Shown here piece by piece: positions 10,709 to 31,626 of a DNA stretch of 64,000 nucleotides. Under the pieces are notes generated by a model. It did no database searches and was not told the DNA's origin. It worked only from the letters and a program-made list of their open reading frames with translations. This DNA is from an uncultured Clostridiaceae bacterium. Its GTDB lineage: Bacteria; Bacillota; Clostridia; TANB77; CAG-508. Every line of letters starts with the position of its first letter. The first letter of the stretch is position 1. The stretch spans positions 48,214 through 112,213 of the forward strand of contig CANRSN010000002.1 in NCBI GenBank assembly GCA_947642455.1. The letters are read 5' to 3'. The position numbers were made by a program, and so were the translations under genes.

Positions 10709-10752
10709 GTGAATATTTAATCTGTGAAATATAACAAATTGTACTCTTTTTT

Positions 10753-10831
10753 GCTGTAGAACAACAGTGACATGATTAAAATATTTAAACCTTTTAGATT
10801 ACTTTTCATGCTACGCCAGTTGTTCGTCAGC
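10753..10831. repeat. long hairpin with conserved loop (family copy 2)
   Basis: Stem gctgtagaacaacagtgacatga / tcatgctacgccagttgttcgtcagc around loop attaaaatatttaaaccttttagattactttt. Confidence 0.75.
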
Positions 10832-11614: not shown

Positions 11615-13684
11615 ATGCAAAAGTTTGGAAAATTCATATGTAATCATTACAAAGCAATAATAATTATTGCAGTATTGCTATTAATTCCATCAATAATAGG
11701 AATTAAAGCAACAAAAATTAATTATGACATATTATCATATTTACCAAGCGACATAGAGACAGTAGAGGGGCAAGAAGTATTATCAGAAGAATTCAACATG
11801 GGGTCATTTGCAATTGTTTTGGTAGACAATACTATGTCACACAAAGATATTTTAAAAATGCAAGAAGAGATAAAAAAAGTAGAGGGAGTAGAAAAAGTAG
11901 TTAGTATAGCAGACATCACAGGAACAATGCTTCCAGAACAAATGATACCAAATAGTATAAAAGAGAAAATTATAAAAGAAAATACAACACCAATGTTAGT
12001 AACATTTAAAACATCAATTGCAGATGATATAACATTAGAGGCGTTAGACAAAATGGATAAAATAGTAGGAGAGCAATGTAAAATTAGTGGAGTATCAGCA
12101 ATGATAAATGACACAAAAACAATATCAAATTCAGAAATGTCAATGTATGTAATAGTAGCAGTTATTTTCTGTATATTAGTATTAGAGTTAGCGTTAGACT
12201 CATATTCAGTACCAATTATTCTTTTAGGAGGAATAGGAATTTCAATTTTATACAATATGGGAAGCAATATCATGTTAGGAGAGATTTCATATATTACAAA
12301 AGCGATTGCAACAGTTTTACAGCTAGGAGTAACAATGGACTTTTCTATTTTCCTATATCATAGTTATCAAAGGCAAAAGAAGGAAAATGTAGAGAAAAAA
12401 GAAGCAATGACAAAAGCAATTACAGAGACGTTAGTTTCTATTGTAGGAAGTTCTCTTACAACTATTGCAGGTTTTTTGGCACTATGTAGCATGGATTTAA
12501 CCTTAGGTACAGACATAGGGTTAGTAATGGCAAAAGGAGTTGCAATTGGGGTAATTTGTGTTGTTACAGTATTACCAGCATTAATTCTTGCACTAGACAA
12601 AATAATAGAAAAAACAAAACATAAAGAAATTTTACCATCATTTAATAAATTAACCAAATTTGTAGTAGCACATTATAAGGCAATTTTGGTAGCATTTATA
12701 ATTTTATTAGTGCCAGCAATTTATGGAAATAGTAATACACAAGTATATTACAACATAAACAAAGGCTTGCCAGACACATTGCAGGGTGTTTCAGCAAATA
12801 AAGACTTAGCAGACAAATTTAATATGGTATCTACACAAATTGCATTAGTAGACAAAAATATTAATCATAACAAAATGCAAGAAATAACTAATAAAATAGA
12901 AGAGTTAGATGGTGTAGAATGGGTAATTTCAGAAGATAGTATATTAAGTGCAGGAATACCAAGTCAAATGGTTCCAACATCAATTAGAGAAGTATTTGAA
13001 AGTGGAAAATATAAATTACTTATAGTAAATTCAAGTTATGAAACAGCTACAGATGAGGCAAATAGGTTAATAAACGAAATAGATAATTTACTTAAATCTT
13101 ATGATGAAAATGCAATTATGGCAGGGGAAGGTCCACTAATGAAAGATTTAGTAGAAATAGCAGATCATGACTTTAATAGTGTAAATATTGTATCAATAGG
13201 AGTAATATTCATATTAATGATAATTGTATTAAAATCAGGTTCACTACCAATTATATTAATAGGAGTAATAGAATTTGCGATAATGCTAAACATGTCAGTA
13301 TCATGTTATACAAATACTACATTGCCATTTGTTGCATCTATTGTAATAGGTACAATTCAGCTAGGAGCTACGGTTGATTATGCAATTTTAATGACAACTA
13401 AATATATAGAAGAGAGGAAGGCTGGAAGTAACAAAAAAGAAGCAGTAGAAAGTGCGCTTAGTTCATCAATAAAATCGATTATAGTTAGTGCACTATGTTT
13501 CTTTGCAGCAACTTGTGGAGTATCGTTCTTCTCAAAAATAGAAATGATAGGCTCTATTTGTACACTAATTTCAAGAGGAGCAATTATTAGTATGGTTGTA
13601 GTTATTTGTATATTACCAGCATGTTTAATGTTATTAGACAAAATAATTTGTAAGACTACAATAGGTATGAGAAAGTGTAAATAG
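11615..13684 (+). CDS. MMPL-family (RND-like) membrane transporter
   Basis: About 689 aa with two 5-6 TM bundles separated by soluble loops, the typical MMPL duplicated architecture. The start was set at ATG 11615, downstream of AAAGGAG. Confidence 0.75.
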   Translation: MQKFGKFICNHYKAIIIIAVLLLIPSIIGIKATKINYDILSYLPSDIETVEGQEVLSEEFNMGSFAIVLVDNTMSHKDILKMQEEIKKVEGVEKVVSIADITGTMLPEQMIPNSIKEKIIKENTTPMLVTFKTSIADDITLEALDKMDKIVGEQCKISGVSAMINDTKTISNSEMSMYVIVAVIFCILVLELALDSYSVPIILLGGIGISILYNMGSNIMLGEISYITKAIATVLQLGVTMDFSIFLYHSYQRQKKENVEKKEAMTKAITETLVSIVGSSLTTIAGFLALCSMDLTLGTDIGLVMAKGVAIGVICVVTVLPALILALDKIIEKTKHKEILPSFNKLTKFVVAHYKAILVAFIILLVPAIYGNSNTQVYYNINKGLPDTLQGVSANKDLADKFNMVSTQIALVDKNINHNKMQEITNKIEELDGVEWVISEDSILSAGIPSQMVPTSIREVFESGKYKLLIVNSSYETATDEANRLINEIDNLLKSYDENAIMAGEGPLMKDLVEIADHDFNSVNIVSIGVIFILMIIVLKSGSLPIILIGVIEFAIMLNMSVSCYTNTTLPFVASIVIGTIQLGATVDYAILMTTKYIEERKAGSNKKEAVESALSSSIKSIIVSALCFFAATCGVSFFSKIEMIGSICTLISRGAIISMVVVICILPACLMLLDKIICKTTIGMRKCK

Positions 13685-13788
13685 AAATTGTCAAAGAAGG
13701 TTATTAACAAGCTAAGATAGAAGTTATGTCTTAGGTAGAAAGACCGACTATAAAAGTCAATAGTTTTTTGAAAGGAAAGTGATTAATT

Positions 13789-15657
13789 ATGAATGAAATA
13801 GTAAAAAAAATAACAGCAGCAGGAGTTGCAACATGTATGGTTGCAGTATTAAGTACAAATACTGTAATGGCATATACAAAGGAGGAAACAGTATATAGTA
13901 GAGTAAAAAATGATGGAGCTACTTATGAGACAATTGTAAATGAACACATAAAAAATAAAAATAATTTAAAAGAAATAAAAGACTCAAGTATTTTAACAAA
14001 TATAGAAAATGTAAATGGAGAAGAAACTTACACAAAACAGGAAAATCAATTAGTATGGAAGGCAGAAGGAAATGACATATATTATCAAGGAAAAACTACA
14101 AAAGAGCTTCCTATAGAAATTAAAATAGTATATAAGTTAGATGGAAAAGAAATATTAGCTCAAGAATTGGTAGGTAAAAATGGAAATGTAGAAATTTGCA
14201 TAAATTTTAAAAATAGAGAAAAACATGAAGTAATTATAAATGAAAAAACTCAAACAATGTATACACCATTTACTATTGTGGCAGGTGCTATATTGGACAA
14301 TACTAAAATGAAAAATATAGAGATTACAAATGGCAAAACTATAGATAATGGAAAAAATACTATTGCAATGGGAATTGCAGTTCCGGGAATGCAAGAAAGT
14401 TTAGCTTTAGATAAAGAAGAATTAGAGATACCAGAGCAAATTACTTTTAAATTTGATACTGAAAATTTTGAAATTGGAGAAGTAATGATATATTGTACTC
14501 CTAAAATTATAGAAGATGAACAAGTTAACCGTTTAGATGAATTAGATGAAATCTTTAAACAAGTAAAAGAATTACAAGATTCTTCAAAACAATTAGTTAA
14601 TGGTGCAAATGAATTAAAAAATGGAGTACAAACTTTAAATGAAAATACATCTACTTTAGAAAATGGGGCAAGTAAGATAGCAGAAGGAACTAGCAAGTTG
14701 GAAAGTGGAAGTAAAACTATTGCAAATAATATGAGTAAAATTACTAGTGGAACAGATAGTTTAGTAAGTGGAGGAAAAAGTCTAAAACAAGGTATTGATG
14801 CTATAAAAAGTCAATTACCAACACAAAAGGAAGTAGCAAAAAGTAAAACAGACTTAAACACACTTAATACAACAAATAGTCAAACTATTAAGAAATTGGA
14901 AGAGACAAATATACAAATAACATCTGAAATTAATTCTAAAATAGAACCACAATTGAAACAATTACAAACTAATATTGCTAATTTAAAAAAACAAATTGAA
15001 GTATTAGAAAAAGCAGGTCAAGATGTAACTACACTAAAAACAACTGTTACAGCACTAGAAACTTCTCAAACAGCTATGTTAACATTAAAAGCAACAATGT
15101 CACAACAAAAAACGGCAAATGAACAATTAATTGTATTATTACAAAAAAATAATGAAGCAGTAATAGCTTCTACTAGTGAATTAGACAGTATAGTTACTTT
15201 AGGAGTAGCTTTAGAGCAAGTTTCAGAAGGTATAGATACTTTGCAAAATGGTGCTAAACAACTTCAAACAGGAAGTAAACAGTTGCAAACAGGAGTAAAT
15301 ACTTTAGCAAGTAGTACAAAAGAATTGTCAGCAGGAGCCAAAACATTATCTAATGGAACAAAGCAATTATCACAAGGAACAAACACCTTGGAACAAGGTT
15401 CTGTTAAATTGTCAGACGGAATGGAAAAATTTGATAAAGAGGGAATTCAAAAAATTGCTAACCTTGTAAATCATGATTTAAAAGATTTAAAAGCACGTAT
15501 TCAAAAGTTACAGGAATTGGCAAATGATTATAAATGTTTTGCACAAGAAAATGATGTAGATATACAAGAATGTGAGCAAATTATAACTAAATTTGTTATT
15601 TTAACAGACGAAATTAAACAAAAAGAGGGAGAAAAAGCAATTCTTCCAAAAGAATAG
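13789..15657 (+). CDS. secreted/anchored coiled-coil protein, YhgE/Pip N-terminal-like
   Basis: N-terminal signal/TM. Repeated L..G...L..G heptad-like motifs (NGANELKNGVQTL, GASKIAEGTSKLESGSK, GAKQLQTGSKQLQTGVNTL) resemble YhgE/Pip. It sits next to the MMPL gene. Confidence 0.45.
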   Translation: MNEIVKKITAAGVATCMVAVLSTNTVMAYTKEETVYSRVKNDGATYETIVNEHIKNKNNLKEIKDSSILTNIENVNGEETYTKQENQLVWKAEGNDIYYQGKTTKELPIEIKIVYKLDGKEILAQELVGKNGNVEICINFKNREKHEVIINEKTQTMYTPFTIVAGAILDNTKMKNIEITNGKTIDNGKNTIAMGIAVPGMQESLALDKEELEIPEQITFKFDTENFEIGEVMIYCTPKIIEDEQVNRLDELDEIFKQVKELQDSSKQLVNGANELKNGVQTLNENTSTLENGASKIAEGTSKLESGSKTIANNMSKITSGTDSLVSGGKSLKQGIDAIKSQLPTQKEVAKSKTDLNTLNTTNSQTIKKLEETNIQITSEINSKIEPQLKQLQTNIANLKKQIEVLEKAGQDVTTLKTTVTALETSQTAMLTLKATMSQQKTANEQLIVLLQKNNEAVIASTSELDSIVTLGVALEQVSEGIDTLQNGAKQLQTGSKQLQTGVNTLASSTKELSAGAKTLSNGTKQLSQGTNTLEQGSVKLSDGMEKFDKEGIQKIANLVNHDLKDLKARIQKLQELANDYKCFAQENDVDIQECEQIITKFVILTDEIKQKEGEKAILPKE

Positions 15658-15662
15658 TACAC

Positions 15663-15691
15663 TTGACATAAATCAAGAAAAATGATAAAAT
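15663..15691 (+). promoter_or_regulatory. sigma-A type promoter (copy 1 of a duplicated promoter plus leader)
   Basis: TTGACA at 15663-15668, 17-nt spacer, TAAAAT at 15686-15691. The following leader of about 85 nt is nearly identical to 17199..17279. Confidence 0.65.
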
Positions 15692-15841
15692 GTGCACATG
15701 TTTTTTTATAATTGCACAATTAACTATAAGTGCAACAAAAATCTAATAATAAAGAAGAGGAGGGAGAAAAGCATAAAAAAACTACATTTATTATTGTTAG
15801 ATTATTTCTAAGATTAAATTTAAGCTAAGAAGGTGAAGCAT

Positions 15842-16780
15842 ATGAAGAAAAAGACTATAAAAGGAAATCGTATAATTCGGTTTCGCAAGCCTCAAGAGAA
15901 CAATAAGCAGGTTTCAGACGAATTTGTAAATGAAGAAAAAATAGTAGAGGAAAAGCCTGAACAAATAACTAAAAAGGAGATAGTAGAGGAAAAGCCTGAA
16001 CAAATAACTAAAAAGGAGATAGTAGAGGAAAAGTCTGAACGAATAACTACAAATGAAATAGTAGAGAAAAAATCTGAGCAGGTAAATACAGAAAAACAAG
16101 GAGAAGAGGAACAAAAGAAAATAAGAAGCCATGAAGAATCTAAAATATATAAAGCATATGAAGAATTAAAAGATACTGTGCAAAATGTTATGTTAGATAG
16201 GCAAACTTCTAATATGATAGGAATTTTCGGAGAAAACGCAGATAATGCTGTCAAAATGCTTTATAGAGAAAGTGGTATTTTAACAAAAGAAAATGAATTA
16301 GGTTATACATTGTATGGTAAAGGAATAGATATATATGATAGGATTGCAGCAGATCTCGAATCTTATATACAAAAACAATTTTCAACAAGTTGGTATTTTA
16401 GTATATATTATCTAATTCAACACGTGTATTCAGATCCAAAAAAGGAGCCATATAGTGAATATGAAGATGAAAAATCAAAAATGAGATTACAAGTAATTAG
16501 ACAATGTCAAAGAGCAATGGATATTTTAGAAATTATTAGTAAGATTAAGCTCAAGGGTCAAATTGATAAATATTTTATCATTGTAGAATTACACAATGTA
16601 GATTGTGATGTATTATATAAACTTTCGAAATTAAATGATTCGAATCTAGTTATAATTGTACATTGTGATCAAAGTATTAGTACTATTAATAAATATATGT
16701 CTTATAACATATATGGAGATTATAGGATGGATGTAATATCTAAGTTTTTTAAATATACAAATTGTATTGAAGCAGTTTAA
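15842..16780 (+). CDS. hypothetical protein, paralogue of 20991..21860, with an acidic 13-aa tandem-repeat insert
   Basis: MKKKTIKGNRIIRFRKPQENN..., KIYKAYEELKDTV, NMIGIFGENADN, YFIIVELHNVDCDVLYKLSKLNDSNLVIIVH align with the second copy. ATG 15842 corresponds to the start of that paralogue. Confidence 0.6.
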   Translation: MKKKTIKGNRIIRFRKPQENNKQVSDEFVNEEKIVEEKPEQITKKEIVEEKPEQITKKEIVEEKSERITTNEIVEKKSEQVNTEKQGEEEQKKIRSHEESKIYKAYEELKDTVQNVMLDRQTSNMIGIFGENADNAVKMLYRESGILTKENELGYTLYGKGIDIYDRIAADLESYIQKQFSTSWYFSIYYLIQHVYSDPKKEPYSEYEDEKSKMRLQVIRQCQRAMDILEIISKIKLKGQIDKYFIIVELHNVDCDVLYKLSKLNDSNLVIIVHCDQSISTINKYMSYNIYGDYRMDVISKFFKYTNCIEAV

Positions 16781-16817
16781 TAAAAAGATTATCGATAAGT
16801 AGGAGAAAATAACAATA

Positions 16818-16866
16818 ATAGACCTTGATGAGCGCAAATTTTGTTAAAAAGAATGAAAATTTAATT
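16818..16866 (+). pseudogene. remnant of a 21871..23100-type gene (5' and 3' ends only; start codon lost)
   Basis: acaataatagaccttgatgagcgcaaatt matches atgataataatagaccttgatgagcggaaatt at 21871. It then joins directly to aatttaattaagtagag, which matches the 3' end at 23093-23110. Confidence 0.7.
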
Positions 16867-16910
16867 AAGTAGAGAATACTTTACCAACAGCGGTAGAGTA
16901 TTTTCTACTT
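16867..16910 (+). terminator. hairpin terminator (duplicate of 23105..23148)
   Basis: aagtagagaatacttta ccaacagc ggtagagtattttctactt. Confidence 0.6.
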
Positions 16911-16933
16911 AAATAGTTACATAATGCATACCA

Positions 16934-17152
16934 GCAAAAAGAGTACAATTTGTTATAATTCATAGTTATTAATTATCTATCTAGGCAATATAATATTTAT
17001 TTTTAGAAGTTTTGCGCAGGGAAGCTCCCACAGTGGACATGACCCAGAGCGATTGGCGAAGCCAGTAAAAAACTTCGACAAAATAAATATTATATTGCCT
17101 ATTGGCTTCTAATTTTAAACTATGAATTATAACAAATTGTGCTCTTTTGCTG
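16934..17152. repeat. nested-palindrome MITE/PATE-like element of about 215 bp, copy A
   Basis: Outer IR: aaaagagtacaatttgttataattcatag / ctatgaattataacaaattgtgctctttt. Inner IR: aggcaatataatatttatttttagaagtttt / aaaacttcgacaaaataaatattatattgcct. The core contains tggacatgac and gccagtaaaaaac. There is no credible ORF. Confidence 0.85.
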
Positions 17153-17169
17153 AATATATACAAAATAAC

Positions 17170-17198
17170 TTGACATAAAATAAGAAGAGTGATAAAAT
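17170..17198 (+). promoter_or_regulatory. sigma-A type promoter of the AAA+/radical-SAM operon (copy 2)
   Basis: TTGACA at 17170-17175, 17-nt spacer, TAAAAT at 17193-17198. Confidence 0.65.
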
Positions 17199-17279
17199 AT
17201 ACACATGTTTTTTTATAGTTGCACAATTTACTATAAGTGTAACAAGAATCTAATAATAAAGAAAAGAAGGGAGAAAAAC

Positions 17280-18866
17280 ATGAAAACACAAACTACATTA
17301 CATCTGGAGGACTATGTTTATGCCGGGTATCCAGCAATTGTGTTGAATACAGCGGAGGAGAAGCGGGCGTTAGAAGAATGCTACAAAATAGCCGAAGAAC
17401 TAAAAATGCAGTTTCTTGTATGGTCAGAAACAAATGGAATTCAAAAGTATGTTGTTGAGCATGGAGAAGAAGGAAATTTAGAGCTTGTAGCCGAAATGGT
17501 AGAAGAAACAGTAGCTCCTGATGAAGACGCATTAAGTAAAGGTTTAGGATATGGAAGTGATGTAATTTACTGTATGTTAGATTTTCATACATATATCAAA
17601 AGCCCATCAGTTTGTAGAAAGGCAAAAGATGTTTTCAAAGAAGCTAAGGATAAAGGAATAGTCTATATTTTCATAAGTAATAGGTTTGATATTCCAGTAG
17701 AATTAGAACACGAAATTATGGTAACTAATCTTGAATTGCCAAAAAAAGAGCAATTACAGGATGTTCTAGTAGAATTATGCAAAATGTACAAAAGGGATAT
17801 TCCTAAAAACATACATGAGGTTTTAGATGCAGCATTAGGTCTTACCTCATATGAAGCAGAAAATGCTTTTGCAACATCACTTTCAAAAACCAACGAATTT
17901 GATACTGACATTATAAATAATGTTAAAAGACAAATTATTTGTAAAGATGGACTGTTAGAATATACGCAATCGAAGGAAACGCTGGAAACAGTGGGCGGAA
18001 TGAAAGAATTTACAAATTATGCCCAAGAAAGGTTTTCTGCATATTCTATAGAGGCACAAGAATATGGCTTACCATATCCTAAAGGTGTACTACTTGTAGG
18101 AATTCCTGGATGTGGAAAAAGTTTAGCTGCAAAAGCACTTTCAAATATGTGGAAAAAACCGTTACTTAAATTAGATTTAGGAAAACTGTTTGGTTCATTA
18201 GTAGGCGATACTGAAGCAAAGACAAGAAAAGCCTTAGAAATAGCAGAAGCAATGTCTCCAGCTATTTTGTGGATTGACGAAATAGAAAAAGGTCTTTCAG
18301 GAGTAGGAAGTAGTGGAACAACAGACTCAGGGGTAACCTCTAGAATGTTTGGAACTATTCTTACATGGCTTCAGGAAAAGGAAGCACCAGTGTATGTAAT
18401 AGCTACTGCTAACAATATTTCTTCTTTACCACCAGAATTTCTACGAAAAGGTAGATTTGATGAAATCTTTTTTGTAGATTTACCAAATGTTGAAGAAAGA
18501 AATGAAATTTTCAAAATACAAATTAAAAAGCACAAAAGAAAGGCAGAAGATTTTGATATTGAAAAGTTAGCAAATTTAACTGATGGATATACAGGAGCAG
18601 AAATTGAGGAATGTGTTATTTCTTCAATGTTCCATGCATGGAATGATGGAAAAAGACCATATACAACTGAAGATTTAGAACTTGCAATTTCAGAAATTAA
18701 ACCCATGTCAAAAGGAATTATGAGCAGTACAGTTAGTGCTTTAAGAGAGTGGAGTGTAAATCATGGTATTAGAAATGCCAATAGTGTTATTAAAAATGTA
18801 AATGATGAAATTAATAAAGAAAAGAATGGCAGGCAGATAAGATTCAAAAAAGAGGAGGAAAAATAA
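17280..18866 (+). CDS. AAA+ ATPase, Ycf46-like (classical AAA clade)
   Basis: Walker A GIPGCGKSLAAKA, Walker B ILWIDEIEK, VIATANN, and the second region of homology PPEFLRKGRFDEIFFVDLP. The start was set at ATG 17280 after GAAGGGAG; the upstream part of the track ORF overlaps the promoter. Confidence 0.85.
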   Translation: MKTQTTLHLEDYVYAGYPAIVLNTAEEKRALEECYKIAEELKMQFLVWSETNGIQKYVVEHGEEGNLELVAEMVEETVAPDEDALSKGLGYGSDVIYCMLDFHTYIKSPSVCRKAKDVFKEAKDKGIVYIFISNRFDIPVELEHEIMVTNLELPKKEQLQDVLVELCKMYKRDIPKNIHEVLDAALGLTSYEAENAFATSLSKTNEFDTDIINNVKRQIICKDGLLEYTQSKETLETVGGMKEFTNYAQERFSAYSIEAQEYGLPYPKGVLLVGIPGCGKSLAAKALSNMWKKPLLKLDLGKLFGSLVGDTEAKTRKALEIAEAMSPAILWIDEIEKGLSGVGSSGTTDSGVTSRMFGTILTWLQEKEAPVYVIATANNISSLPPEFLRKGRFDEIFFVDLPNVEERNEIFKIQIKKHKRKAEDFDIEKLANLTDGYTGAEIEECVISSMFHAWNDGKRPYTTEDLELAISEIKPMSKGIMSSTVSALREWSVNHGIRNANSVIKNVNDEINKEKNGRQIRFKKEEEK

Positions 18867-19423
18867 TGAGTCATTTTACAAAAATAACAGCAGAAATTAG
18901 GGATTTAGACGTTTTAAAACAGGCACTTAAAAAAATGAATTTAACATTAGAGAAAAACACTAATTGTCGGTATTATTATGGGGCAGAAGTAAGAGAAAAT
19001 GTTATAAAGCTTCCAGGAGTGTACGATGTAGCTGTTGAAGCTCAAAGCGATGGAACATATGCTTTAGATGCCGATTTTTATGAAGGGCATGTTGCAAAAT
19101 ATATTGGAGCAAATGGAGAAGAGCTTTTAAGACAATATTCTATCGAAAAGCTAAAAAAAGAAGCAAAAAACCATGGGTATAAAGTGTATGACAAGGGGAA
19201 TGGTATATTAAAGATCCTTGACACAAAAAGAGCAGGTAAAATTGAAATTGAATGTTTACCAAATGGCAAGATTGAAATCAAGACTTCTGAATATAAAGGA
19301 AAGTCATGTATGAACTTTGAAATTATTGAAAAAGCTCTTGGAAGAATTGACAGTACCAAGAAAACACCAGAGTACTATAAGTCAGAAAAGGCTACAGCGC
19401 AGGTACGAATGGAAGTAAATTAG
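18866..19423 (+). CDS. DUF1257-like N-terminal domain fused to a DUF2997-like C-terminal domain
   Basis: MSHFTKITAEIRDLDVLKQALKKMN...YDVAVEAQSDGTYALDADFY recalls the Ycf35/DUF1257 signature. KIEIECLPNGKIEIKTSEYKGKSCMNFEIIEKALG recalls DUF2997. The start overlaps the AAA stop (TAATG). Confidence 0.55.
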   Translation: MSHFTKITAEIRDLDVLKQALKKMNLTLEKNTNCRYYYGAEVRENVIKLPGVYDVAVEAQSDGTYALDADFYEGHVAKYIGANGEELLRQYSIEKLKKEAKNHGYKVYDKGNGILKILDTKRAGKIEIECLPNGKIEIKTSEYKGKSCMNFEIIEKALGRIDSTKKTPEYYKSEKATAQVRMEVN

Positions 19424-19583
19424 ATAAATAATTAATTTTAAAAAATGAAATTGCATTAAAATGCAATTGTTAATAAATATTATACTTAAAAAATTTTAAG
19501 TAATATTATCACATTTTAATGCAATTTCTTTGCTAAAAGTTAATTATTTATAACAGCCTATATATCATGGAAGGAAACATGTA

Positions 19584-20960
19584 ATGAATAAAAAGATTGC
19601 TATAATAATGTGTAATGATATGCACATGGACATAGAACGATCAAACATATTATTAAATTACATTGTACAAAATGAAAGCTATGATATTGTTTGTGATTAT
19701 ACAATTGCAGATATTGTCATTATTCAAACTTGTGCTTTTGGAAAAAACAAAAAATATAGTCTGCAGGTAATAGCAGATGTAAGAGCAAATGTAGCTAATA
19801 CTTGTAGAGTTATAGTAACAGGTTGCTTGGTTTGTGTTAATAAAGACGCATTAGAGGCTATTTCTGAAATTGAAGTAAAAAGTTTTGAAGAAGTAGTAAA
19901 TATGTTCAAAAAGGCTCCCATAGCTTTGTATGAACAAATTATTCCTCAAAACAAAGTAATTATCTCAGAAGGTTGCAGAAAAAATTGTTCTTACTGCGTA
20001 TATCCACTAATTGTTGGCAAATATAAGAGTAAACCAATAGAAGATGTGTTATTAGAAGTTGAAAAATTGCATGAAACAGAAACAGTTATATATATAACTG
20101 GAGCACAAGAGACATCAGATTATGGTATTGACTTATATGGAAAGCCAAGTTTTCCAGAGCTGTTGCAAAAAATTTGCTCACAGTTTCCAGACTGTAACTA
20201 TATTATTGGGTGGTTTCATCCAGCAGGCTTAACAGAAGAGATGCTCTCTATTATAGAAAAAAATAAAAATATAATAGAAGTAATGCTTCATATTCAACAT
20301 GTTAATGAAAGAATCCTTAAAAATATGAATCGACCAACAATGGATTTTACAGATAAAAAGATTCAAAAATTAAGGAAGGTAAGACCAGATTTGGTCATAT
20401 CAACAGAAGTAATAGTTGGTTTTCCAGGAGAAAGTCAAGAAGACTTTGAAGAATTGATAATGTATTTAAGCAAAGGGTATTTTGATGATATAGGAGTGGC
20501 AAGTTATGAGCAAGTTTTAGGAACAAAGGCTTCAGTTATGGAAGATCAGGTTCCAGAAAAAATTAAGGAAGAAAGGCTAAACATTATTCAAAACGTGTTT
20601 AGGGCATGTACATACCCAACCAGCAAGAGTTATAATATGTCAGTTATTGAAGAATATATAAAAGCATATGGATTATTTAAAAATATTCCAAGAAATATTT
20701 TAAATAATAGACAAAAATATAATTTAATAGCTGGGGTAGACACAAAAACTAAAACTGAAGATTTTGAAGAATGTTTAAAAGAAATGTATGAATGTGTTAT
20801 TAATTCAAGAAGTGAGTTTGACTTCAAGAGAAATAAAAAATACTTGAAAGAAAAATACACTTTAGAAGCTAGAACATTTTTCTACCATGTTTTAAAAAAT
20901 GGAAACTTTAAAAATGCAATTAAGCAAAGAGGTAAAGAATTATTATTAGATTATTTCTAA
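19584..20960 (+). CDS. radical-SAM methylthiotransferase, MiaB/RimO/MtaB family, without a recognisable TRAM domain
   Basis: The three N-terminal MTTase cysteines are present (IIMCNDM, IQTCAF, VTGCLV). The radical-SAM motif is CRKNCSYC, followed by GFPGESQEDFEEL. The last 110 aa or so look helical and do not resemble TRAM. Confidence 0.75.
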   Translation: MNKKIAIIMCNDMHMDIERSNILLNYIVQNESYDIVCDYTIADIVIIQTCAFGKNKKYSLQVIADVRANVANTCRVIVTGCLVCVNKDALEAISEIEVKSFEEVVNMFKKAPIALYEQIIPQNKVIISEGCRKNCSYCVYPLIVGKYKSKPIEDVLLEVEKLHETETVIYITGAQETSDYGIDLYGKPSFPELLQKICSQFPDCNYIIGWFHPAGLTEEMLSIIEKNKNIIEVMLHIQHVNERILKNMNRPTMDFTDKKIQKLRKVRPDLVISTEVIVGFPGESQEDFEELIMYLSKGYFDDIGVASYEQVLGTKASVMEDQVPEKIKEERLNIIQNVFRACTYPTSKSYNMSVIEEYIKAYGLFKNIPRNILNNRQKYNLIAGVDTKTKTEDFEECLKEMYECVINSRSEFDFKRNKKYLKEKYTLEARTFFYHVLKNGNFKNAIKQRGKELLLDYF

Positions 20961-20990
20961 GATTAAATTTAAGCTAAGAAGGGGAAGCAT

Positions 20991-21860
20991 ATGAAGAAAA
21001 AGACTATAAAGGAAAATCGTATAATTCGGTTTCACAAGGCTCAAGAGAATAATAATCAGGTTTCAGACAAATATGTAGATGATGAAAAATTAGTAGAAGA
21101 AGAGTCTGAACAAATAAATACAAATGAAATAGGAGAGGGAAAATCCAAGAAGGTAAATACAGACGAGGAAGATGAAGAAGAACAAAATCGAAGAAAAATC
21201 TATAAAGCATATGAAGAATTAAAAGATACAGTAAAAGATGTCATATTAGACAGGCGAACTTCTAATATGATAGGAGTTTTCGGAATAAACGCAGATAATG
21301 TTGTAAATATGTTTTGTAGAAAAAGTGATAGTTTGACAGAAAAAAATTATTTAGGTAAGATATGTTATTCTGAAGCAATGGATATATATAATTCTATTGC
21401 AGCATTACTCATAGAATATGTACAAAAGCAACTTCCACAAAGATGGTATTATGGAAATAATGCAGATTTAGTTGAACAAATTGAAAATGTATATGTAAAT
21501 CCTAATGAAGATTTGAGTAATGAGTATTCAACATTAAGAGGCTTATCAAAAATATCCAAAAAGTACCAAAGAGAACGGAATATTTTAGGAATTATTAGTA
21601 ACTTAAAGAGAATCAATACTGGAATTAACAAATATTTTCTCATTGTGGAATTAGAAGATTTGAATTATGATGTATTGAATAAACTTTCGAAATTGGATAA
21701 TTCAAATCTAGTTATAATTGTACATGCTTTGTATAGAACTGATAGTATTGATGAAGATATATTGTTTAAGTTTTTTACATATAAAAATTGTATTAAGGCA
21801 GAAGGAATAATAAGACGAAAAAAAGCTCAAAAGAAGCAAAAAAATTATTGTTGTTGTTAA
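20991..21860 (+). CDS. hypothetical protein, paralogue of 15842..16780; ends in ...KNYCCC
   Basis: 289 aa, collinear with the first copy. It has an acidic N-terminal region, NMIGVFGINADN and YFLIVELEDLNYDVLNKLSKLDNSNLVIIVH. Confidence 0.6.
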   Translation: MKKKTIKENRIIRFHKAQENNNQVSDKYVDDEKLVEEESEQINTNEIGEGKSKKVNTDEEDEEEQNRRKIYKAYEELKDTVKDVILDRRTSNMIGVFGINADNVVNMFCRKSDSLTEKNYLGKICYSEAMDIYNSIAALLIEYVQKQLPQRWYYGNNADLVEQIENVYVNPNEDLSNEYSTLRGLSKISKKYQRERNILGIISNLKRINTGINKYFLIVELEDLNYDVLNKLSKLDNSNLVIIVHALYRTDSIDEDILFKFFTYKNCIKAEGIIRRKKAQKKQKNYCCC

Positions 21861-21870
21861 GGAGGAAAAC

Positions 21871-23100
21871 ATGATAATAATAGACCTTGATGAGCGGAAA
21901 TTCTATCAAAATGAAGAGCCAGCTAATTTTGGAAAAACGAAGTTTATAGAAATGTGCAAAGAGTATTTTAAGCAATTTTATCAAGATGAAACTATAATAA
22001 AATTAATAAAAGAAATGCAAGATGAAATATTATATACAGTGCAAGGGGATAAAGTGTTTTTAGTAGTAAAAAATGAAACAATGTATTGTATAAATGATAC
22101 TTATCCCATAAAGATATGTAAATTTGAAGAAAATTTATATGGCATAAAAGATACTGCACATAAGGTTTTTCAAGAATGTTTTGAAGACTGTTTTCCTAGA
22201 TTTAAAAGACTAATACTAGGTTATAAACAATGGAACGAAAAAGACATAAAATCAATACCTACTATCGATGTAGATATAGGGAGTCATAAGGATTTTGAGG
22301 AGTATATTAATGAATTTAAAGAAATTATTAAAGATATACTACTCACAATACTAAAAGGAGATTTATGTGATAAAGTATGTTCTGAAATTGTGGAAGCATA
22401 TAAAAGCAACATTCTAGAAAATAATCCTATTCTAGTATTGGTGAAAAAATGTGAAAATGCTAAAGAGATCTATAGTAAAGGAATATATGTAATTACAGAA
22501 AAACTAGAAGTAAAAAAAGTATCATATTTTGTTCTTGAAGGAGAATTAGAGCAAATAATAGGTAAGGTAATGCCAAAAGACAAAGCTCTTTTAGTAAATC
22601 CAATATATAATTACATACAAGTATTTTCAAGGAAGGTAAAACCAATTATTAGAGTTAATAAATTATATCCTGAAGGAGTAAGTGCTATATTATCTTTTTA
22701 CAACGAAAACCAGACACCAATAGTTATAAAATATGGAGCTGGATGTTGTTATGCGCTTTTGCCTTATCATCGTAATTGGAGTGTAAATCCTTTCAATATT
22801 AATATAGAAGAAGATAAGGAATACGATGAAACTTTAATTTTTAATGAAATGAAAGCAATAGATAAAGGTAGATTCAAAGATGTAGAGTGTTATGTTATGT
22901 CACAAACAAAAAAATATGAAAACACTAAGATTGAAATGCCTGAAGTACTTGAAAACAATGTACTATATAAATTAGAAAAAGAAGAATTGAAAGTCATACC
23001 GGACACACCAGATGACAGATTTACAGCTAGGAATAATATTTTCAGTAAGCGTGAAATCTATATGTTATGTAAACTTAATATTAAAGGAATAGGAATTTAA
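21871..23100 (+). CDS. hypothetical protein (409 aa), no recognisable family
   Basis: Good RBS (AAGGAGG), long ORF, last gene before the terminator. Confidence 0.55.
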   Translation: MIIIDLDERKFYQNEEPANFGKTKFIEMCKEYFKQFYQDETIIKLIKEMQDEILYTVQGDKVFLVVKNETMYCINDTYPIKICKFEENLYGIKDTAHKVFQECFEDCFPRFKRLILGYKQWNEKDIKSIPTIDVDIGSHKDFEEYINEFKEIIKDILLTILKGDLCDKVCSEIVEAYKSNILENNPILVLVKKCENAKEIYSKGIYVITEKLEVKKVSYFVLEGELEQIIGKVMPKDKALLVNPIYNYIQVFSRKVKPIIRVNKLYPEGVSAILSFYNENQTPIVIKYGAGCCYALLPYHRNWSVNPFNINIEEDKEYDETLIFNEMKAIDKGRFKDVECYVMSQTKKYENTKIEMPEVLENNVLYKLEKEELKVIPDTPDDRFTARNNIFSKREIYMLCKLNIKGIGI

Positions 23101-23104
23101 TCAA

Positions 23105-23148
23105 AGTAGAGAATACTTTACCAGTAGTGGTAGAGTATTCTCTATTTT
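23105..23148 (+). terminator. hairpin terminator of the operon
   Basis: agtagagaatacttta ccagtagt ggtagagtattctctatttt. Confidence 0.6.
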
Positions 23149-23356
23149 CTTATACAATAGGAAAGTCATACGGACTTTTCCTATTGTATAAAAAGCTTCG
23201 CAAATATTGTGCACAAATTTTTAAAAAAATTTGGCACAGAACAAATTTACGGAAAGCCAAAGAGAAAAGTTAAAGTTATGCTAATTTAAAGGCTTTCCGA
23301 TTTGTTCGTATATAAAAGCTTTGCCAAACGTCCCACACAAAATTGCTAATATAAAA

Positions 23357-23371
23357 TGATAATTATTATCA
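23357..23371. promoter_or_regulatory. perfect 7-1-7 Fur-type box (distal)
   Basis: TGATAATtATTATCA, embedded in aaaaTGATAATTATTATCAtttt. Confidence 0.6.
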
Positions 23372-23611
23372 TTTTATATTAAATGCCACTGGAAACAGTT
23401 AGAAAATAAGCGTTTTTAGAAAACGGAAAAAGTTAATGTAATAATTTTGTAACAAAAATGCAATAAAATTGTAATAAAAAAATACAACTTAGTTATATCA
23501 ATATATCTAAAAAAGAGTTTGCCAAAAAAACATACTGTAAAAAAAAGGAAATTCCATAAAACAAGCTATATATCAATAAAATATGCTAGTGTATACATAA
23601 AGACTACATGT

Positions 23612-23640
23612 TTGACATTATATTTTTTCTAGTATAATAT
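23612..23640 (+). promoter_or_regulatory. candidate nrdD promoter
   Basis: TTGACA at 23612-23617 and tagTATAATat at 23630-23640. The spacing is 15-17 nt depending on which -10 register is used. Confidence 0.45.
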
Positions 23641-23690
23641 ATGGGTGTTTCCAATTAGAATTTATTAAAAATTCTTAAAAACTTCAAAAA

Positions 23691-23705
23691 TGATAATAAT
23701 TATCA
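23691..23705. promoter_or_regulatory. perfect 7-1-7 Fur-type box (proximal, between promoter and nrdD start)
   Basis: TGATAATaATTATCA, embedded in aaaaTGATAATAATTATCAttttt. Confidence 0.6.
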
Positions 23706-23771
23706 TTTTTGGAGTAAAAACTAGGAAACAAACTAAATTAAAACAAAAAAGTAATATAGGGGGAATATTAA

Positions 23772-26063
23772 ATGCAAGTAATTAAAAGAGATGGAAGATT
23801 AGCAGAATTTAATCCAGAAAGGATTGTAAAAGCAGTAACACTAGCAATGTCACAAACACCAGGAGGTGTAGATATAGATTTAGCCAACAAAATAGCAGAA
23901 GGTGTAAGAAAGCAAATTGAAGATAAAAATCAAACAACAGTATATGAAATACAAGACTTAGTAGAAAAAAAATTAATGGCATCAACAAGAAAAGAAGTTG
24001 CACAAAATTATATTACATATAGATATAACAGAGATGTTGCAAGAAAATCAAGAACAAAAGAGATGTTTTTAGAAATAATAGAAACAAAGTCAAATGATGT
24101 AACAAGAGAAAATGCAAACATGAATGCAGACACACCAGCAGGAATGATGATGAAATTTGCATCAGAAACAACAAAACCATTCGTAGATGACTTCTTATTA
24201 TCACAAGAAGCAAGAGAAGCATTTCAAAAAGGCTATATACATATACATGACAAAGATTATTATCCAACAAAATCTCTAACATGTTTGCAACATCCATTAG
24301 ATAAAATATTAGAAAATGGATTCAGAGCAGGACATGGAGCATCAAGACCAGCAAAAAGAATAGAAACAGCAAGCATACTAGGTTGTATATCAATGGAAAC
24401 TGTACAAAACGAAATGCACGGAGGACAAGCTATACCAGCATTTGACTACTATTTAGCACCATATGTTAAATTAACATTTAAAGAAGAACTTAAAAAAGTA
24501 GAAGAAATAGTTGGAAAAGATTTATCAGACTTATACGATTATCAACCAGAAGACTATATTAAAAAAGATTTAAAAGGACTAGAAGGAAAAGAAAGAGACA
24601 TACAAGCAGCAATAAATAATACAGTTTCAAGAGTACATCAATCAATGGAAGCATTTATACATAATATGAATACAATACATTCAAGAGGTGGAAATCAAGT
24701 TGTATTTAGTTCAATAAATTATGGAACAGACACAACTCCAGAAGGTAGATGTATAATAAGAGAAATACTTCTTTCAACAGAAAGAGGAGTTGGAAATAAT
24801 GAAACACCAATATTTCCAATACAAATTTGGAAGAAAAAAAGAGGAGTAAATTATTTACCAGAAGACAGAAACTATGACTTATACAAATTATCATGTAGAG
24901 TAGCAGCAAAAAGGTTTTTCCCAAACTACATAAACTTAGATTCAACATTTAATAGTCATGAAAAATGGAAAGCAGAAGATCCAAAAAGATACATGTATGA
25001 ATGTGCAACAATGGGTTGTAGAACAAGAGTATTTGCAGATAGACATGGAGAAAAAACATCAGTAGGAAGAGGAAATTTATCTTTTTCAACAGTAAACTTA
25101 GTAAGAATAGCAATAGAATCAGCATATGAAGCACAAGAACAAACAGGAGTAAAATTTGTATTAGGTAGAGGTAGCGAAGAGAGTATGACACCAGCATACA
25201 AAAAGGCAGTTAAAAAAATATTTATGCAAAAATTAGAAAAATATTGTGATATAACAGCAAGACAATTATACGATAGATATAAATTCCAATCTACAGCAAT
25301 AGCAAAACAATTCCCATTACTAATGAGTGGCTTATGGGTTGGAAGTGAAAACTTAAAACCAAACGATAATATATCATCAATAATAAAACATGGAACTTTA
25401 GGACTTGGATTTATAGGCTTAGCAGAATGTTTAACAGTTATTACAGGAAAACACCACGGAGAATCAGAAGACTCACAAAAATTAGGGTTAGAAATAATTG
25501 GCTTAATACATGAATGTTGCGCAAATTATTCAGATAGATATGACTTAAACTATTCAGTATTAGCAACACCAGCAGAGGGCTTAGCAGGTAGGTTTACAAA
25601 AATAGATAGAAAAGAATTTGGAACAATATTAGGAGTTACAGACAGAGATTATTATACAAATTCAAACCATGTACCAGTATGGTATAAATGTACAGCAGAA
25701 CATAAAGCAAAAATAGAAGCACCATATCATGCAATGACAGAAGGTGGTCATATATTCTATATAGAATTAGATGGAGATGCAACACATAACCCAGAAAGTA
25801 TAGAAGCAGTAGTTGATTTAATGGATAAATATAACATGGGGTATGGAAGTGTAAACCATACACGTTCAAGATGTATGGACTGTGGCTTTGAAAACTCTGA
25901 TGCAGATTTAAAAGAATGCCCAGTATGTGGAAGTAAAAATATAGATACAATTCAAAGAATAACAGGTTATTTAGTTGGAACAACATCTCGTTGGAATAGT
26001 GCTAAACTTTCAGAATTAAATGATAGAGTAACACATGTAGATGGTGGAATAGCAGGAAAATAA
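23772..26063 (+). CDS. nrdD: anaerobic ribonucleoside-triphosphate reductase (class III)
   Basis: N-terminal ATP-cone (VIKRDGRLAEFNPERI), a C-terminal Zn ribbon CMDCGF...CPVCGS, and the glycyl-radical motif RITGYLVG. Confidence 0.95.
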   Translation: MQVIKRDGRLAEFNPERIVKAVTLAMSQTPGGVDIDLANKIAEGVRKQIEDKNQTTVYEIQDLVEKKLMASTRKEVAQNYITYRYNRDVARKSRTKEMFLEIIETKSNDVTRENANMNADTPAGMMMKFASETTKPFVDDFLLSQEAREAFQKGYIHIHDKDYYPTKSLTCLQHPLDKILENGFRAGHGASRPAKRIETASILGCISMETVQNEMHGGQAIPAFDYYLAPYVKLTFKEELKKVEEIVGKDLSDLYDYQPEDYIKKDLKGLEGKERDIQAAINNTVSRVHQSMEAFIHNMNTIHSRGGNQVVFSSINYGTDTTPEGRCIIREILLSTERGVGNNETPIFPIQIWKKKRGVNYLPEDRNYDLYKLSCRVAAKRFFPNYINLDSTFNSHEKWKAEDPKRYMYECATMGCRTRVFADRHGEKTSVGRGNLSFSTVNLVRIAIESAYEAQEQTGVKFVLGRGSEESMTPAYKKAVKKIFMQKLEKYCDITARQLYDRYKFQSTAIAKQFPLLMSGLWVGSENLKPNDNISSIIKHGTLGLGFIGLAECLTVITGKHHGESEDSQKLGLEIIGLIHECCANYSDRYDLNYSVLATPAEGLAGRFTKIDRKEFGTILGVTDRDYYTNSNHVPVWYKCTAEHKAKIEAPYHAMTEGGHIFYIELDGDATHNPESIEAVVDLMDKYNMGYGSVNHTRSRCMDCGFENSDADLKECPVCGSKNIDTIQRITGYLVGTTSRWNSAKLSELNDRVTHVDGGIAGK

Positions 26064-28755: not shown

Positions 28756-28838
28756 TGTTGTTACAATTCATAGTTTATAAAATTATATTGCCTAAGTAGA
28801 AATTGGGCTGTGAATTGTAACATAGTGTTACTACAATT
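28755..28838. repeat. internally deleted remnant of the MITE/PATE-like element (copy D)
   Basis: ttacaattcatag ... attatattgcct ... ctgtgaattgtaaca keeps the outer IR and the right inner arm only. Confidence 0.6.
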
Positions 28839-29677: not shown

Positions 29678-31141
29678 ATGAAAATAATAGAGAAAACAAA
29701 AAAACATGATAATATAATTATGCTAATATTTATAGGAATAGCAGTATGTGCAGTTGCATTTTGGGTAAAATCAGAGGCAAATGATGAATTATGGAACTTT
29801 TCTAACATATATAAAATGGTAAATGGATATACAATATATAAAGACACAAATGTTATAATAACCCCACTATTTTTTTACATTGGAGAAATATTCTTCAAAA
29901 TAGTAGGGGCAAATTACCTAACAGGAAGAATACTTGGTGCATTAATATTCATATCGATGTTTTTTTCAATATATCAACTATTTAAGGTATTAAACATACG
30001 AAAATTAAATAGTATGTTATATGTATTAGGAATAATGGTGGCATACCAAGAAAATATAATGTCAATAGGTGCATATAACCAATTAGCAATAATATTTTAT
30101 ATATTAGGAATAATATTTTTGATAAAATCAAAATATAAACCTACAATAAACAGTATAATACAAGGAATAATAATATTTTTAATTTTTTTAAGTAAGCAAA
30201 ACTTAGCAGTATACTATATAATAGCTAATATAATATGCAAAATAATAACGAATAAAAATCAAATAGTCAAACATACAATAATAGAATTAACAACAAGTTT
30301 CATACTCTTAGTATTGTTCTTATTTACATTATATCTAAACAATAATTTATACGAATTTATAAACTATACAGTACTAGGAATAACCGATTTTGCAGACAAA
30401 AACACAGTAATGCCAGTGGTGAATATAATAGCAATATTACTACAAGTAGCCTTGCTAATATCATATTTAATAATAGCTAAAATAAAGAAAATTCCATTTG
30501 AAGAAAAAATACGAAAAAACATAAAAACAATGACAATCTTTTCAATACTAATAATATTTTTTGCATATCCAATATTAAATGTATTCCACATTAATAGTGA
30601 AGCAATATTAACAATAATAACAACATTATATATAATAGATAACATAATTGTAGAAACACTATTAAAAAGTAAAAAAACAGACATAATAAAGAAAGTTGCT
30701 ATAGTAGCAATGTTAATATATTTCATAATTAAAGGTACAAATAACAATATAAATTACATAAACATGATGGATAAAGAAGAAGGACCGTATTATGGAGCTA
30801 TATTCTTAGAAGAAACTAAGCAAGAAATAAATGAAATTGTAGAATTTATAAAAACTGAAAACAGTAAAGGAATAGATGTGAAAATAGTATCATATCATGC
30901 AAATTTATATATGAATATATTGAAAAAAAATAATGGAATTATGGATTTACCTTTCAATGGAAATATGGGTAAAGATGGAGCAAATGGAGTTATAAATCAA
31001 ATAAAAAGTCTGCAAAATTCAAAAGTTCTTATAACAAAAGAAAAAGATGATATATATCAAGAGTCAACACAAATAAGAGAATATATACAAAACAATATGA
31101 AATTAATAGGGGAAATAAGCCAATTCTTAATATACAAGTAA
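29678..31141 (+). CDS. large polytopic membrane protein, GT-C (ArnT/PMT)-like architecture
   Basis: At least 10 predicted TM helices followed by a soluble C-terminal domain of about 120 aa. No catalytic motif was recognised with confidence. Confidence 0.35.
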   Translation: MKIIEKTKKHDNIIMLIFIGIAVCAVAFWVKSEANDELWNFSNIYKMVNGYTIYKDTNVIITPLFFYIGEIFFKIVGANYLTGRILGALIFISMFFSIYQLFKVLNIRKLNSMLYVLGIMVAYQENIMSIGAYNQLAIIFYILGIIFLIKSKYKPTINSIIQGIIIFLIFLSKQNLAVYYIIANIICKIITNKNQIVKHTIIELTTSFILLVLFLFTLYLNNNLYEFINYTVLGITDFADKNTVMPVVNIIAILLQVALLISYLIIAKIKKIPFEEKIRKNIKTMTIFSILIIFFAYPILNVFHINSEAILTIITTLYIIDNIIVETLLKSKKTDIIKKVAIVAMLIYFIIKGTNNNINYINMMDKEEGPYYGAIFLEETKQEINEIVEFIKTENSKGIDVKIVSYHANLYMNILKKNNGIMDLPFNGNMGKDGANGVINQIKSLQNSKVLITKEKDDIYQESTQIREYIQNNMKLIGEISQFLIYK

Positions 31142-31176: not shown

Positions 31177-31390
31177 GCAAAAAAAGAGTGCAATTCATAG
31201 ATATTAATTATTCATCTAGGCAATATAATATTTATTTTTAGAAGTTTTGCTTAAGGGAAACTCCAAAAGTGGACATGACCCAGAGCTACCCACTAAGCCA
31301 GTAAAAAACTTCGACAAAATAAATATTATATTGCCTATTGGCTTCTAATTTCAAACTATGAATTGTAACAATTTTACTCTTTTTTATTGA
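31177..31390. repeat. MITE/PATE-like nested palindromic element, copy B
   Basis: Same inner arms as copy A (ctaggcaatataatatttatttttagaagttttgc ... aaaaacttcgacaaaataaatattatattgcctattggcttctaattt) and the same outer arm (ctatgaattgtaaca). Confidence 0.85.
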
Positions 31391-31626
31391 AAATTATTAG
31401 AAAATATTGTTAAAAAAAGAATTGTGATATAAACTATTGAAGAGGATATAATAAGAATATTATCAACATTAACAAATTCTTAAAATATAAATAAAAAATA
31501 ATTTAAAAGGCGAATATAAAAAAGAAAAAGAGTATATTTTTTTCATATAGTATTATAATAAAAATAGGTTTATAGGTAAAACCTTAACAACAAAAACCTA
31601 AATATATTGATAAAGGAAAAGAGAAA

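Follow-up and report, generated by a model that had tools for sequence, protein, structure and literature searches.

A reduced tandem copy of an AAA/DUF1257-DUF2997/methylthiotransferase operon retains a divergent gene-4 paralogue, a promoter and a leader in a Clostridia-type bacterium

In cyanobacteria, the gene of the AAA protein Ycf46 (slr0374) forms an operon with slr0373 and slr0376, which is stress-induced and whose function has been described as unknown (PMC7496141). A comparable arrangement, judged by the domain names used in PMC4284462 and PMC7496141, is present in the stretch of DNA studied here (the window), 64,000 nucleotides of contig CANRSN010000002.1 (assembly GCA_947642455.1) from a low-GC (27.7%) Clostridia-type bacterium, where an AAA gene also adjoins DUF1257 and DUF2997; the likeness to the cyanobacterial and plastid Ycf46-Ycf35-DUF2997 module is one of domain names. 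We take slr0373 and slr0376 to be the DUF1257 (Ycf35-like) and DUF2997 proteins of that module. In the window, the AAA gene opens a five-gene operon, in which it is followed by a DUF1257-DUF2997 fusion gene, a methylthiotransferase (MTTase) gene and two genes here called gene 4 and gene 5. Upstream of this operon lies a second, much shorter copy, in which a paralogue of gene 4 (g4p) is the one intact gene. It is nearly certain that this copy arose by duplication followed by deletions, and we consider it probable that the outcome is a co-regulated g4p, kept as a divergent second version of gene 4.

The shorter copy (copy 1, 15661-16915; all coordinates are those of the window) was compared with the full operon (copy 2, 17168-23152) by a BLASTN search of 15500-17170 against 17100-23500, by repeat finding and by pairwise alignments over the junctions, and all the approaches agreed. 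BLASTN returned five collinear blocks on the same strand. The first (15661-15788 to 17168-17299; 86.4%, E 9e-41) runs from the promoter through the leader into the first AAA codons. The second (15790-16663 to 20939-21725; 68.5% with gaps, E 3e-117, with the first 200 nt 84-89% identical) and the third (16741-16775 to 21767-21801; 88.6%, within gene 4) span the final 22 nt of the MTTase gene together with the spacer and gene 4. The fourth (16796-16853 to 21858-21915; 82.8%, E 5e-12) contains the ribosome-binding site (RBS) and the first 15 codons of gene 5, and the fifth (16847-16910 to 23083-23147; 83.1%, E 4e-13) the 3' end of gene 5 with the hairpin that follows it. An earlier note on this DNA had reported a repeated promoter and leader upstream of the operon, which the first block bears out, and the homology as a whole reaches far beyond the two paralogous open reading frames (ORFs) rather than being confined to them.

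The missing parts of copy 1 can be accounted for by two deletions. Deletion 1 comprises 3,639 nt (17300-20938) and leads from AAA codon 8 to MTTase codon -7; deletion 2 comprises about 1,167 nt (21916-23082) and leads from gene-5 codon 16 to the last codons of that gene. These lengths agree with the losses of about 3.6 and 1.2 kb estimated previously. In the pairwise alignments, junction 1 shows a microhomology of 1-3 nt, and junction 2 falls within an imperfect 8-nt repeat (AAA.GAA). The AAA relic meets the MTTase tail at about 15789/15790, and the fusion is in frame, giving a 12-codon relic (15773-15811) that ends at the MTTase stop; a join of the AAA remnant to the last 20 nt or so of the radical-SAM gene had indeed been noticed, and the retained tail is 22 nt including the TAA. 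Both orphaned start codons have changed from ATG to ATA, that of the AAA gene (15773-15775), as already recognized in the earlier note, and that of gene 5 (16809-16811). The gene-5 remnant had been described as keeping its first 30 nt or so, without the start codon, and its last nucleotides; the loss of the start and the survival of both ends are correct, but the 5' part extends to about 45 nt (15 codons) plus the RBS. The relics of the deleted genes (the first AAA codons, the last 22 nt of the MTTase gene and both ends of gene 5) keep the order of the operon, and the full gene-4 paralogue recorded at 15842-16780 is an intact ORF in the window. Homology begins 4 nt 3' of the stop codon of an upstream gene encoding 622 amino acids.

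The same structure was found wherever this species could be compared, i.e. in four assemblies: the window, the metagenome-assembled genome (MAG) contigs L009/L011 (GCA_948585425.1), and the ENA metagenome contigs L008 and L013. Over 20 kb, L009 and the window are 99.06% identical, with the same layout; in L009/L011, g4p encodes 299 aa, one 13-aa repeat fewer than in the window, and L013 is also shorter by one unit. The junctions in L008 and L013 match those of the window base for base, and they are identical in 4/4 assemblies. Hence the deletions have become fixed in the population sampled, and the question of polymorphism raised by the earlier note is answered in the negative. An assembly artefact was considered and rejected, the same structure being present in four independent assemblies. 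As a side observation, L008:1-70 (1.3x coverage) departs from the window on the 5' side of the copy-1 promoter, about 25 nt before the stop of the 622-aa gene, for which a chimeric assembly or another genomic context is possible.

The closest other lineages, two sister Clostridia lineages represented by L014 and L017, have one five-gene operon with the genes in the same order. Their AAA proteins are 74% and 72% identical to that of the window, respectively, and gene 4 and gene 5 about 32% and 31%. No second gene-4 match was found upstream of the operon in the flanking sequence available for inspection, up to 10 kb in L014 and about 1.2 kb only in L017. The five-gene order is common to L009, L014 and L017, and two further contigs (L095 and L096) contain the first four genes in order and a shorter fifth ORF that was not matched to gene 5. 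Each of the two paralogues, gene 4 and g4p, has the other as its best match (241 bits), and no orthologue exceeds 151 bits. The exact g4p sequence had no record in the look-up, and was reached through P0001, a relative 99% identical to it. Because the relics stand in order, the operon is single in L014 and L017, and gene 4 and g4p are reciprocal best matches, the sequences establish a lineage-specific tandem duplication of an ancestrally single operon, followed by the deletions that are now fixed. Duplication followed by deletion, as first suggested in the earlier note, is the only reading that fits all three observations.

The two copies are in tandem, as had been stated, but they are not immediately adjacent. 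They are separated by 16916-17167, most of which is a palindromic repeat of about 235 nt (16924-17160) resembling a miniature inverted-repeat transposable element (MITE). The repeat folds as a single long hairpin (-95 kcal/mol) with a relatively GC-rich centre; further copies are found at 31192-31432 and 34933-35139, giving at least three full copies in the window, and fragments near 10713-10756 and 28758-28828. It lies outside the duplicated unit, operon homology resuming right after it at 17168. For this repeat, the leader and the hairpins, Rfam contained nothing credible (13000-26000, E<=1).

A palindromic repeat placed exactly between the copies could suggest that copy 1 was imported already degraded, by recombination with a diverged strain or on a mobile element, the MITE-like repeat perhaps helping. 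The synonymous divergence (dS) of the paralogues, 0.30 against 0.002-0.07 between strains, would be consistent with an import, and so would the fact that the gene-4/gene-5 region is a hot spot of recombination or of single-nucleotide polymorphisms (SNPs). However, the copy is directly upstream of the operon, head-to-tail and in the same orientation; its homology spans exactly from promoter to terminator hairpin, as for a duplicated transcription unit; and no integrase, transposase or mobile-element genes were found near it. Moreover, an exhaustive hidden Markov model search of 1.84 billion proteins (representatives at 50% clustering), which was used to define the gene-4 family, showed that no other family member is as close to gene 4 or to g4p as these two are to each other. 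An import is, in our opinion, very unlikely.

A promoter scan of 15400-23800 returned the two duplicated promoters as the top two sigma-70-type sites, each scoring 11/12 and having in addition a TG extension. The copy-1 leader contains an inverted repeat, TTGCAC (15712-15717) and GTGCAA (15730-15735), and the invariant motif CTAATAAT at 15743-15750; in the window, this combination of motifs occurs in the two operon copies only. A recognizable promoter and leader (TTGAC...TGATAtAAT, an inverted repeat and the invariant CTAATAAT) also precede the L014 and L017 operons, although the proteins of these lineages are just about 72% identical. Their inverted repeat is TTGCAA..TTGCAA instead of TTGCAC..GTGCAA, both arms having undergone compensatory change.

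The comparison of the two copies along their length showed that identity is not evenly distributed. It amounts to 87% in the promoter, 89% in the leader, 94% in the AAA relic, 95% in the MTTase tail and 97% in the spacer; within the gene-4 paralogues it is 90% over codons 1-33, 82% in the linker and 77% in the globular domain; and it is 80% in the gene-5 start relic and 79% in the hairpin. Taken together, the 5' non-coding part (promoter, leader and spacer) is identical at 165/181 positions (91%), as compared with 104/132 (79%) in the dead 3' relics (Fisher p = 0.003), and the duplicated regulatory region looks constrained. Given that the duplicated promoter and leader have been preserved both in the two copies and in other species, co-regulation of g4p with the operon is probable.

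At the other end of copy 1, the hairpin lacks the U-tract that is present 3' of the copy-2 hairpin. Because of this loss it may terminate poorly, and read-through into the full operon is possible. Of two related claims of the earlier note, the presence of the same terminator in both copies is correct for the hairpin but not for the U-tract; the other, an intact promoter driving only the gene-4 paralogue, stands as regards the promoter, which is among the two best sites, but possible read-through makes its restriction to g4p uncertain.

The leader has a further property, which we regard as a lead rather than a finding. Its segment AATCTAATAATAA has a complement in the last MTTase codons (TTATTATTAGATT, which encode the conserved ...LLLD C-terminus), the complementary pairs being 15740-15752/15790-15803 in copy 1 and 17247-17259/20940-20952 in copy 2. 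Complementarity of a comparable degree occurs in 5/5 operons, where the tail ranks 22/1156, 20/1138, 1/1268, 27/1065 and 29/992 (top ~2-3%), the operons being homologous and not independent. The right breakpoint of deletion 1 is the exact start of this element of the MTTase tail. In copy 1, this deletion leaves about 40 nt between the two arms, and the stem is present in the minimum-free-energy fold, with a z-score of just -1.56. An RNA pairing between the leader and the MTTase tail is conceivable.

Several observations indicate that g4p is still a coding gene. Its frame is intact in the window, in L009/L011 and in L008, with no frameshift or premature stop. The six indels that distinguish it from gene 4 (78, 18, 12, 6, 3 and 36 nt) are all multiples of 3, the chance of which is 0.0014. 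The paralogues, whose proteins are 46% identical, are separated by about 197 substitutions, and in simulations with the base composition of the window an open frame survived 50 random substitutions in 1.5% of the cases and 100 substitutions in <0.1%. In addition, g4p keeps 39/60 of the positions conserved in the gene-4 family (gene 4 keeps 43/60), and retains the RxIRF N-terminus and the motifs NMIG.FG.NAD, D.Y..IA and KFF..N.

It should be noted that other data on g4p weigh against its being a maintained, functional gene. In the comparison with gene 4, dS and the nonsynonymous divergence (dN) are both 0.30, so that dN/dS is 1.0, which looks neutral, although diversifying selection would produce the same pattern. 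The rate of evolution of g4p is 2-3 times that of gene 4 (28 unique changes against 9-14; p = 0.003-0.04 with the closest outgroups), and g4p has lost some strongly conserved residues, with L replaced by K at a 92% column and Y by C at an 85% column. The L013 allele (L013:1724-2692, corresponding to window 15842-16854) differs from that of the window by 18 nonsynonymous and 4 synonymous changes, which fit relaxed constraint as well as diversifying selection, and has a 23-nt frameshift deletion, although in a contig of 2.8x coverage an error is possible. It also has an 18-nt insertion.

These are the features to be expected if copy 1 were a slowly decaying relic, in which g4p is not needed and the promoter looks intact since it is short; dN/dS is about 1 also between g4p alleles, and both neighbouring relics are already without a start codon. 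It appears unlikely, if by no means negligible, that decay is the whole explanation. Without selection, the probability that 312 codons remain open at 28% GC after the ~100 substitutions of one branch is <0.1%, and decay would account poorly for the in-frame indels, for the core family motifs still in place, and for a 5' regulatory part better conserved than the dead 3' relics. Two gene-4 paralogues are likewise maintained in L017 (see below). Our reading is that selection on g4p is weak or diversifying, and that the gene may be dispensable in some strains. As for the suggestion of the earlier note that gene 4 can be selected separately, on its own, the preserved reading frame of g4p supports the separate selection, but 'on its own' is doubtful. 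Given its position beside a complete operon with which it has promoter and leader in common, g4p is more likely to act together with the operon products than alone. The decoy, regulatory and immunity-like functions that the earlier note offered as examples are conjectural.

The differences in L013 are concentrated in one part of the gene: 23 SNPs cluster in 16080-16577, in the globular domain, where divergence reaches 4.6%, as compared with 0.2% over the preceding 1.5 kb, and the flanking gene is 99.8% identical. Similarly, 68 of the 135 SNPs between the window and L009 fall in 21500-23500, which takes in the 3' end of gene 4 together with the C-terminal half of gene 5 (omega for gene 5 is 0.64); in their AAA, DUF and MTTase proteins the two strains do not differ. 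One could imagine from this clustering in the globular domains that g4p is a donor cassette for gene conversion of the variable domain of gene 4, with the 5' block (about 280 nt, ~90% identical) and the 3' relic (~80%) flanking the divergent domain as homology arms. However, of the 26 sites differing between L013 and the window, agreement with copy 2 is on the L013 side at 12 and on the window side at 11, a split that is plain divergence, with no conversion tracts, and a silent cassette would not need the strong promoter and RBS that g4p has. A donor role is extremely improbable, and gene conversion between g4p and gene 4 in L013 was rejected on the same split. A second cluster of SNPs between the window and L009 is found elsewhere, at 30000-30500, in a 487-aa ORF (29678-31141).

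The gene-4 family consists of 31 representatives of 103-325 aa, mostly about 225-325 aa; a word-indexed homology search gave 3 clusters for gene 4 and 7 for gene 5 only. Gene 4 follows the MTTase gene in the same operon in L014, L017, L095 and L096, which is every case with genomic context except L098. In that 1.6-kb contig, 280 nt of promoter-like DNA without coding sequence (L098:1-280) take the place of the MTTase gene ahead of the gene of a distant homologue (P0028, 325 aa), a hint that in other genomes gene-4-like genes may come first in a transcription unit of their own.

An AlphaFold2 model of gene 4 based on a 29-sequence alignment (pLDDT 82, pTM 0.73) shows about 60 disordered residues followed by a compact alpha/beta domain, whose best Foldseek matches in the PDB are RdrA, ORC/Cdc6, NB-ARC and CED-4. 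The predicted fold is thus AAA+/STAND-like, a three-layer alpha/beta fold. At the position of the Walker A motif the family has MIGVFGxN[SA]D, without GxxxxGK[ST] and with no Lys-Ser/Thr, and in the model just 3 residues connect the strand to the helix, too few for a P-loop; because of the degenerate Walker A and the short loop, gene 4 is a probable pseudo-ATPase. In g4p, an RxIRF motif at the N-terminus is followed by an acidic linker and then by an AAA+/STAND-like domain, whose Walker A is likewise degenerate. The gene-4 profile gave noise only against PDB sequences, and the model had no significant match in a viral fold library. The basic C-terminal tail of gene 4 in the window (21801-21860) ends in three cysteines (...RRKKAQKKQKNYCCC; ...KKPKNLWCC in L009), a feature absent from g4p and from all 27 other aligned family members.

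L017, a contig from a related Eubacteriales MAG, carries a second, very divergent gene of this family (hhalign probability 98.4%), g4b (L017:4767-5429), between the MTTase gene and gene 4. The N-terminus of g4b, MKIQRVIRF, is identical to that of L017 gene 4, which recalls the close likeness of the gene-4 and g4p N-termini in the window. Two lineages therefore keep two gene-4 variants each, with a common N-terminal motif and divergent domains.

Taken together, the sequences show the following history. An ancestor of this species duplicated in tandem the whole transcription unit of about 6 kb, from promoter to terminator, and the upstream copy then lost its 3,639 and ~1,167 nt by illegitimate recombination at very short repeats. 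The orphaned AAA and gene-5 starts decayed to ATA, and the MITE-like element was inserted later between the copies. What remained upstream is a monocistronic unit, made of the operon promoter and leader, a short spacer of relics and the intact g4p. From the shared promoter and the cross-species conservation of the leader, we infer that g4p is made together with the operon, where it could act as a second, divergent version of the gene-4 pseudo-ATPase subunit. The very similar N-termini of gene 4 and g4p would presumably dock onto other operon proteins, while the globular domains diverged fast; g4p would thus add dosage, or an alternative specificity for the gene-4 target, using the AAA/DUF/MTTase machinery encoded next door.

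As for the operon itself (Table 1), the AAA protein is a classical AAA ATPase with a Cdc48/PAN/FtsH-like core and a lid domain, and has no more than generic similarity to IetA; PADLOC gave no match for the operon beyond such generic AAA similarity. Close homologues of the AAA protein occur in many bacterial phyla as well as in archaea, and several of these loci also encode a DUF1257-like protein nearby. Along its whole length it matches phrog_8638 (1e-122), and phrog_20456 is matched by the DUF1257 part of the fusion protein, so that each of the two has relatives in phage protein families. The MTTase comprises a UPF0004 N-terminal domain (PF00919) and a radical-SAM core (PF04055). Its best NCBIfam match is RimO (TIGR01125), with 212 bits against a cut-off of 357; it is below every equivalog cut-off, the RimO match ends at residue 340/458, and no TRAM domain was detected in the Pfam scan. 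Its substrate may be a protein encoded by the operon itself. Gene 4, g4p and gene 5 had zero matches in PADLOC, NCBIfam, Pfam and PHROGs. The structure model of gene 5 is unusable (pLDDT 48), and a homology between gene 5 and gene 4 was rejected on comparison. A near-perfect 130-nt hairpin (19424-19551; 40-nt arms, 88% complementary, -39 kcal/mol) occupies the space between the DUF1257/DUF2997 and MTTase genes, whereas in L014 these genes nearly abut.

Table 1. Features of the reduced copy, of the full operon and of the sequence between them, in window coordinates.
Feature	Position	Strand	Comparison or evidence
Copy-1 promoter: TTGACA, 17-nt spacer, TG-extended TAAAAT	15663-15691	+	27/31 identical to 17168-17198; 0 SNPs vs L009
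Copy-1 leader, including the former AAA RBS	15692-15772	+	72/81 identical to 17199-17279
Relic of first AAA codons, start ATG to ATA	15773-15789	+	16/17 identical, one 4-nt gap
Relic of last 22 nt of MTTase gene with TAA stop, in frame with AAA relic	15790-15811	+	21/22 identical to 20939-20960
Spacer with g4p RBS (GAAGGTGA)	15812-15841	+	29/30 identical to 20961-20990
g4p, intact gene-4 paralogue, 312 aa	15842-16780	+	46% identical to gene 4, E 1e-80
39-nt tandem repeat, 3.4 copies, 13-aa units EIVEEKPEQITKK, in g4p linker	15941-16071	+	Copy number differs among strains
Relic of gene-5 RBS and first 15 codons; start ATA 16809-16811, premature TAA 16845-16847	16789-16853	+	52/65 identical to 21851-21915
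Relic of last gene-5 nucleotides and 21-bp hairpin (16865-16885/16892-16912), without U-tract	16847-16915	+	83% to 23083-23147; -27.8 kcal/mol
Palindromic MITE-like repeat between operon copies, outside duplicated unit	16924-17160		Hairpin -95 kcal/mol
Full operon, copy 2	17168-23152	+	Pfam/NCBIfam/PADLOC scans, promoter scan, fold
Operon promoter	17170-17198	+	Promoter scan
AAA ATPase	17280-18866	+	PF00004
DUF1257+DUF2997 fusion	18866-19423	+	PF06868, PF11211
RimO/MiaB-like MTTase	19584-20960	+	PF00919, PF04055
Gene 4, 289 aa	20991-21860	+	No library match
Gene 5, 409 aa	21871-23100	+	No library match
Terminator hairpin, then U-tract	23106-23145	+	Fold

The duplication itself is ordinary, textbook genome evolution. 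Its value is that of a natural experiment on an uncharacterized operon that includes the widespread AAA/DUF1257/DUF2997 module. Of the five genes, selection would have kept gene 4 only, along with the promoter and leader, and a second lineage also has two gene-4 paralogues; this singles out gene 4, with its conserved N-terminal motif, as a candidate for the dosage- or specificity-limiting part. Gene 4 and g4p offer two natural variants for comparison, the leader, conserved between copies and species, is a candidate regulatory element, and the fast-evolving gene-4/gene-5 pair contrasts with the invariant AAA, DUF and MTTase enzymes. It is tempting to go further and see in the operon a conflict or stress system not yet described, in which gene 4 and gene 5 would be the fast-evolving specificity parts and g4p a co-induced alternative sensor, adaptor or decoy, broadening or adjusting the specificity. 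If true, this would explain the retention of gene 4, the regulatory leader and the MTTase-tail element that may pair with it; we put it forward as a decidedly speculative and rather improbable extension.

Among known systems, RimO, MiaB and MtaB are the relatives of the operon MTTase, which has the UPF0004 and radical-SAM domains and is closest to RimO, but differs from them in its sub-cut-off score and in that no TRAM domain was detected. The best structural match of the gene-4 model is RdrA of the anti-phage system RADAR (Foldseek E 1e-4, TM 0.46 over 289 aa including the disordered third). Compared with RdrA and with STAND/AAA+ initiators, however, gene 4 and g4p are three times smaller and have no GxxxxGK[ST], the family motif being G-V-F-G-x-N-S-D; as for RADAR membership, Pfam showed no RdrB-like deaminase domain in the operon, and PADLOC no match for gene 4, g4p or gene 5. 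The operon differs from that of cyanobacteria in that DUF1257 and DUF2997 are fused and are followed by the MTTase, gene 4 and gene 5, which are absent from the cyanobacterial description. Finally, the locus shares with other cases of tandem operon duplication and reductive deletion the head-to-tail unit, the deletions at microhomologies, the gene relics and the faster evolution of the retained paralogue. Unlike in ordinary duplication and decay, the retained g4p still has the duplicated promoter along with a leader that is conserved in other species too, which suggests a co-regulated satellite of the operon and not a stray pseudogene.

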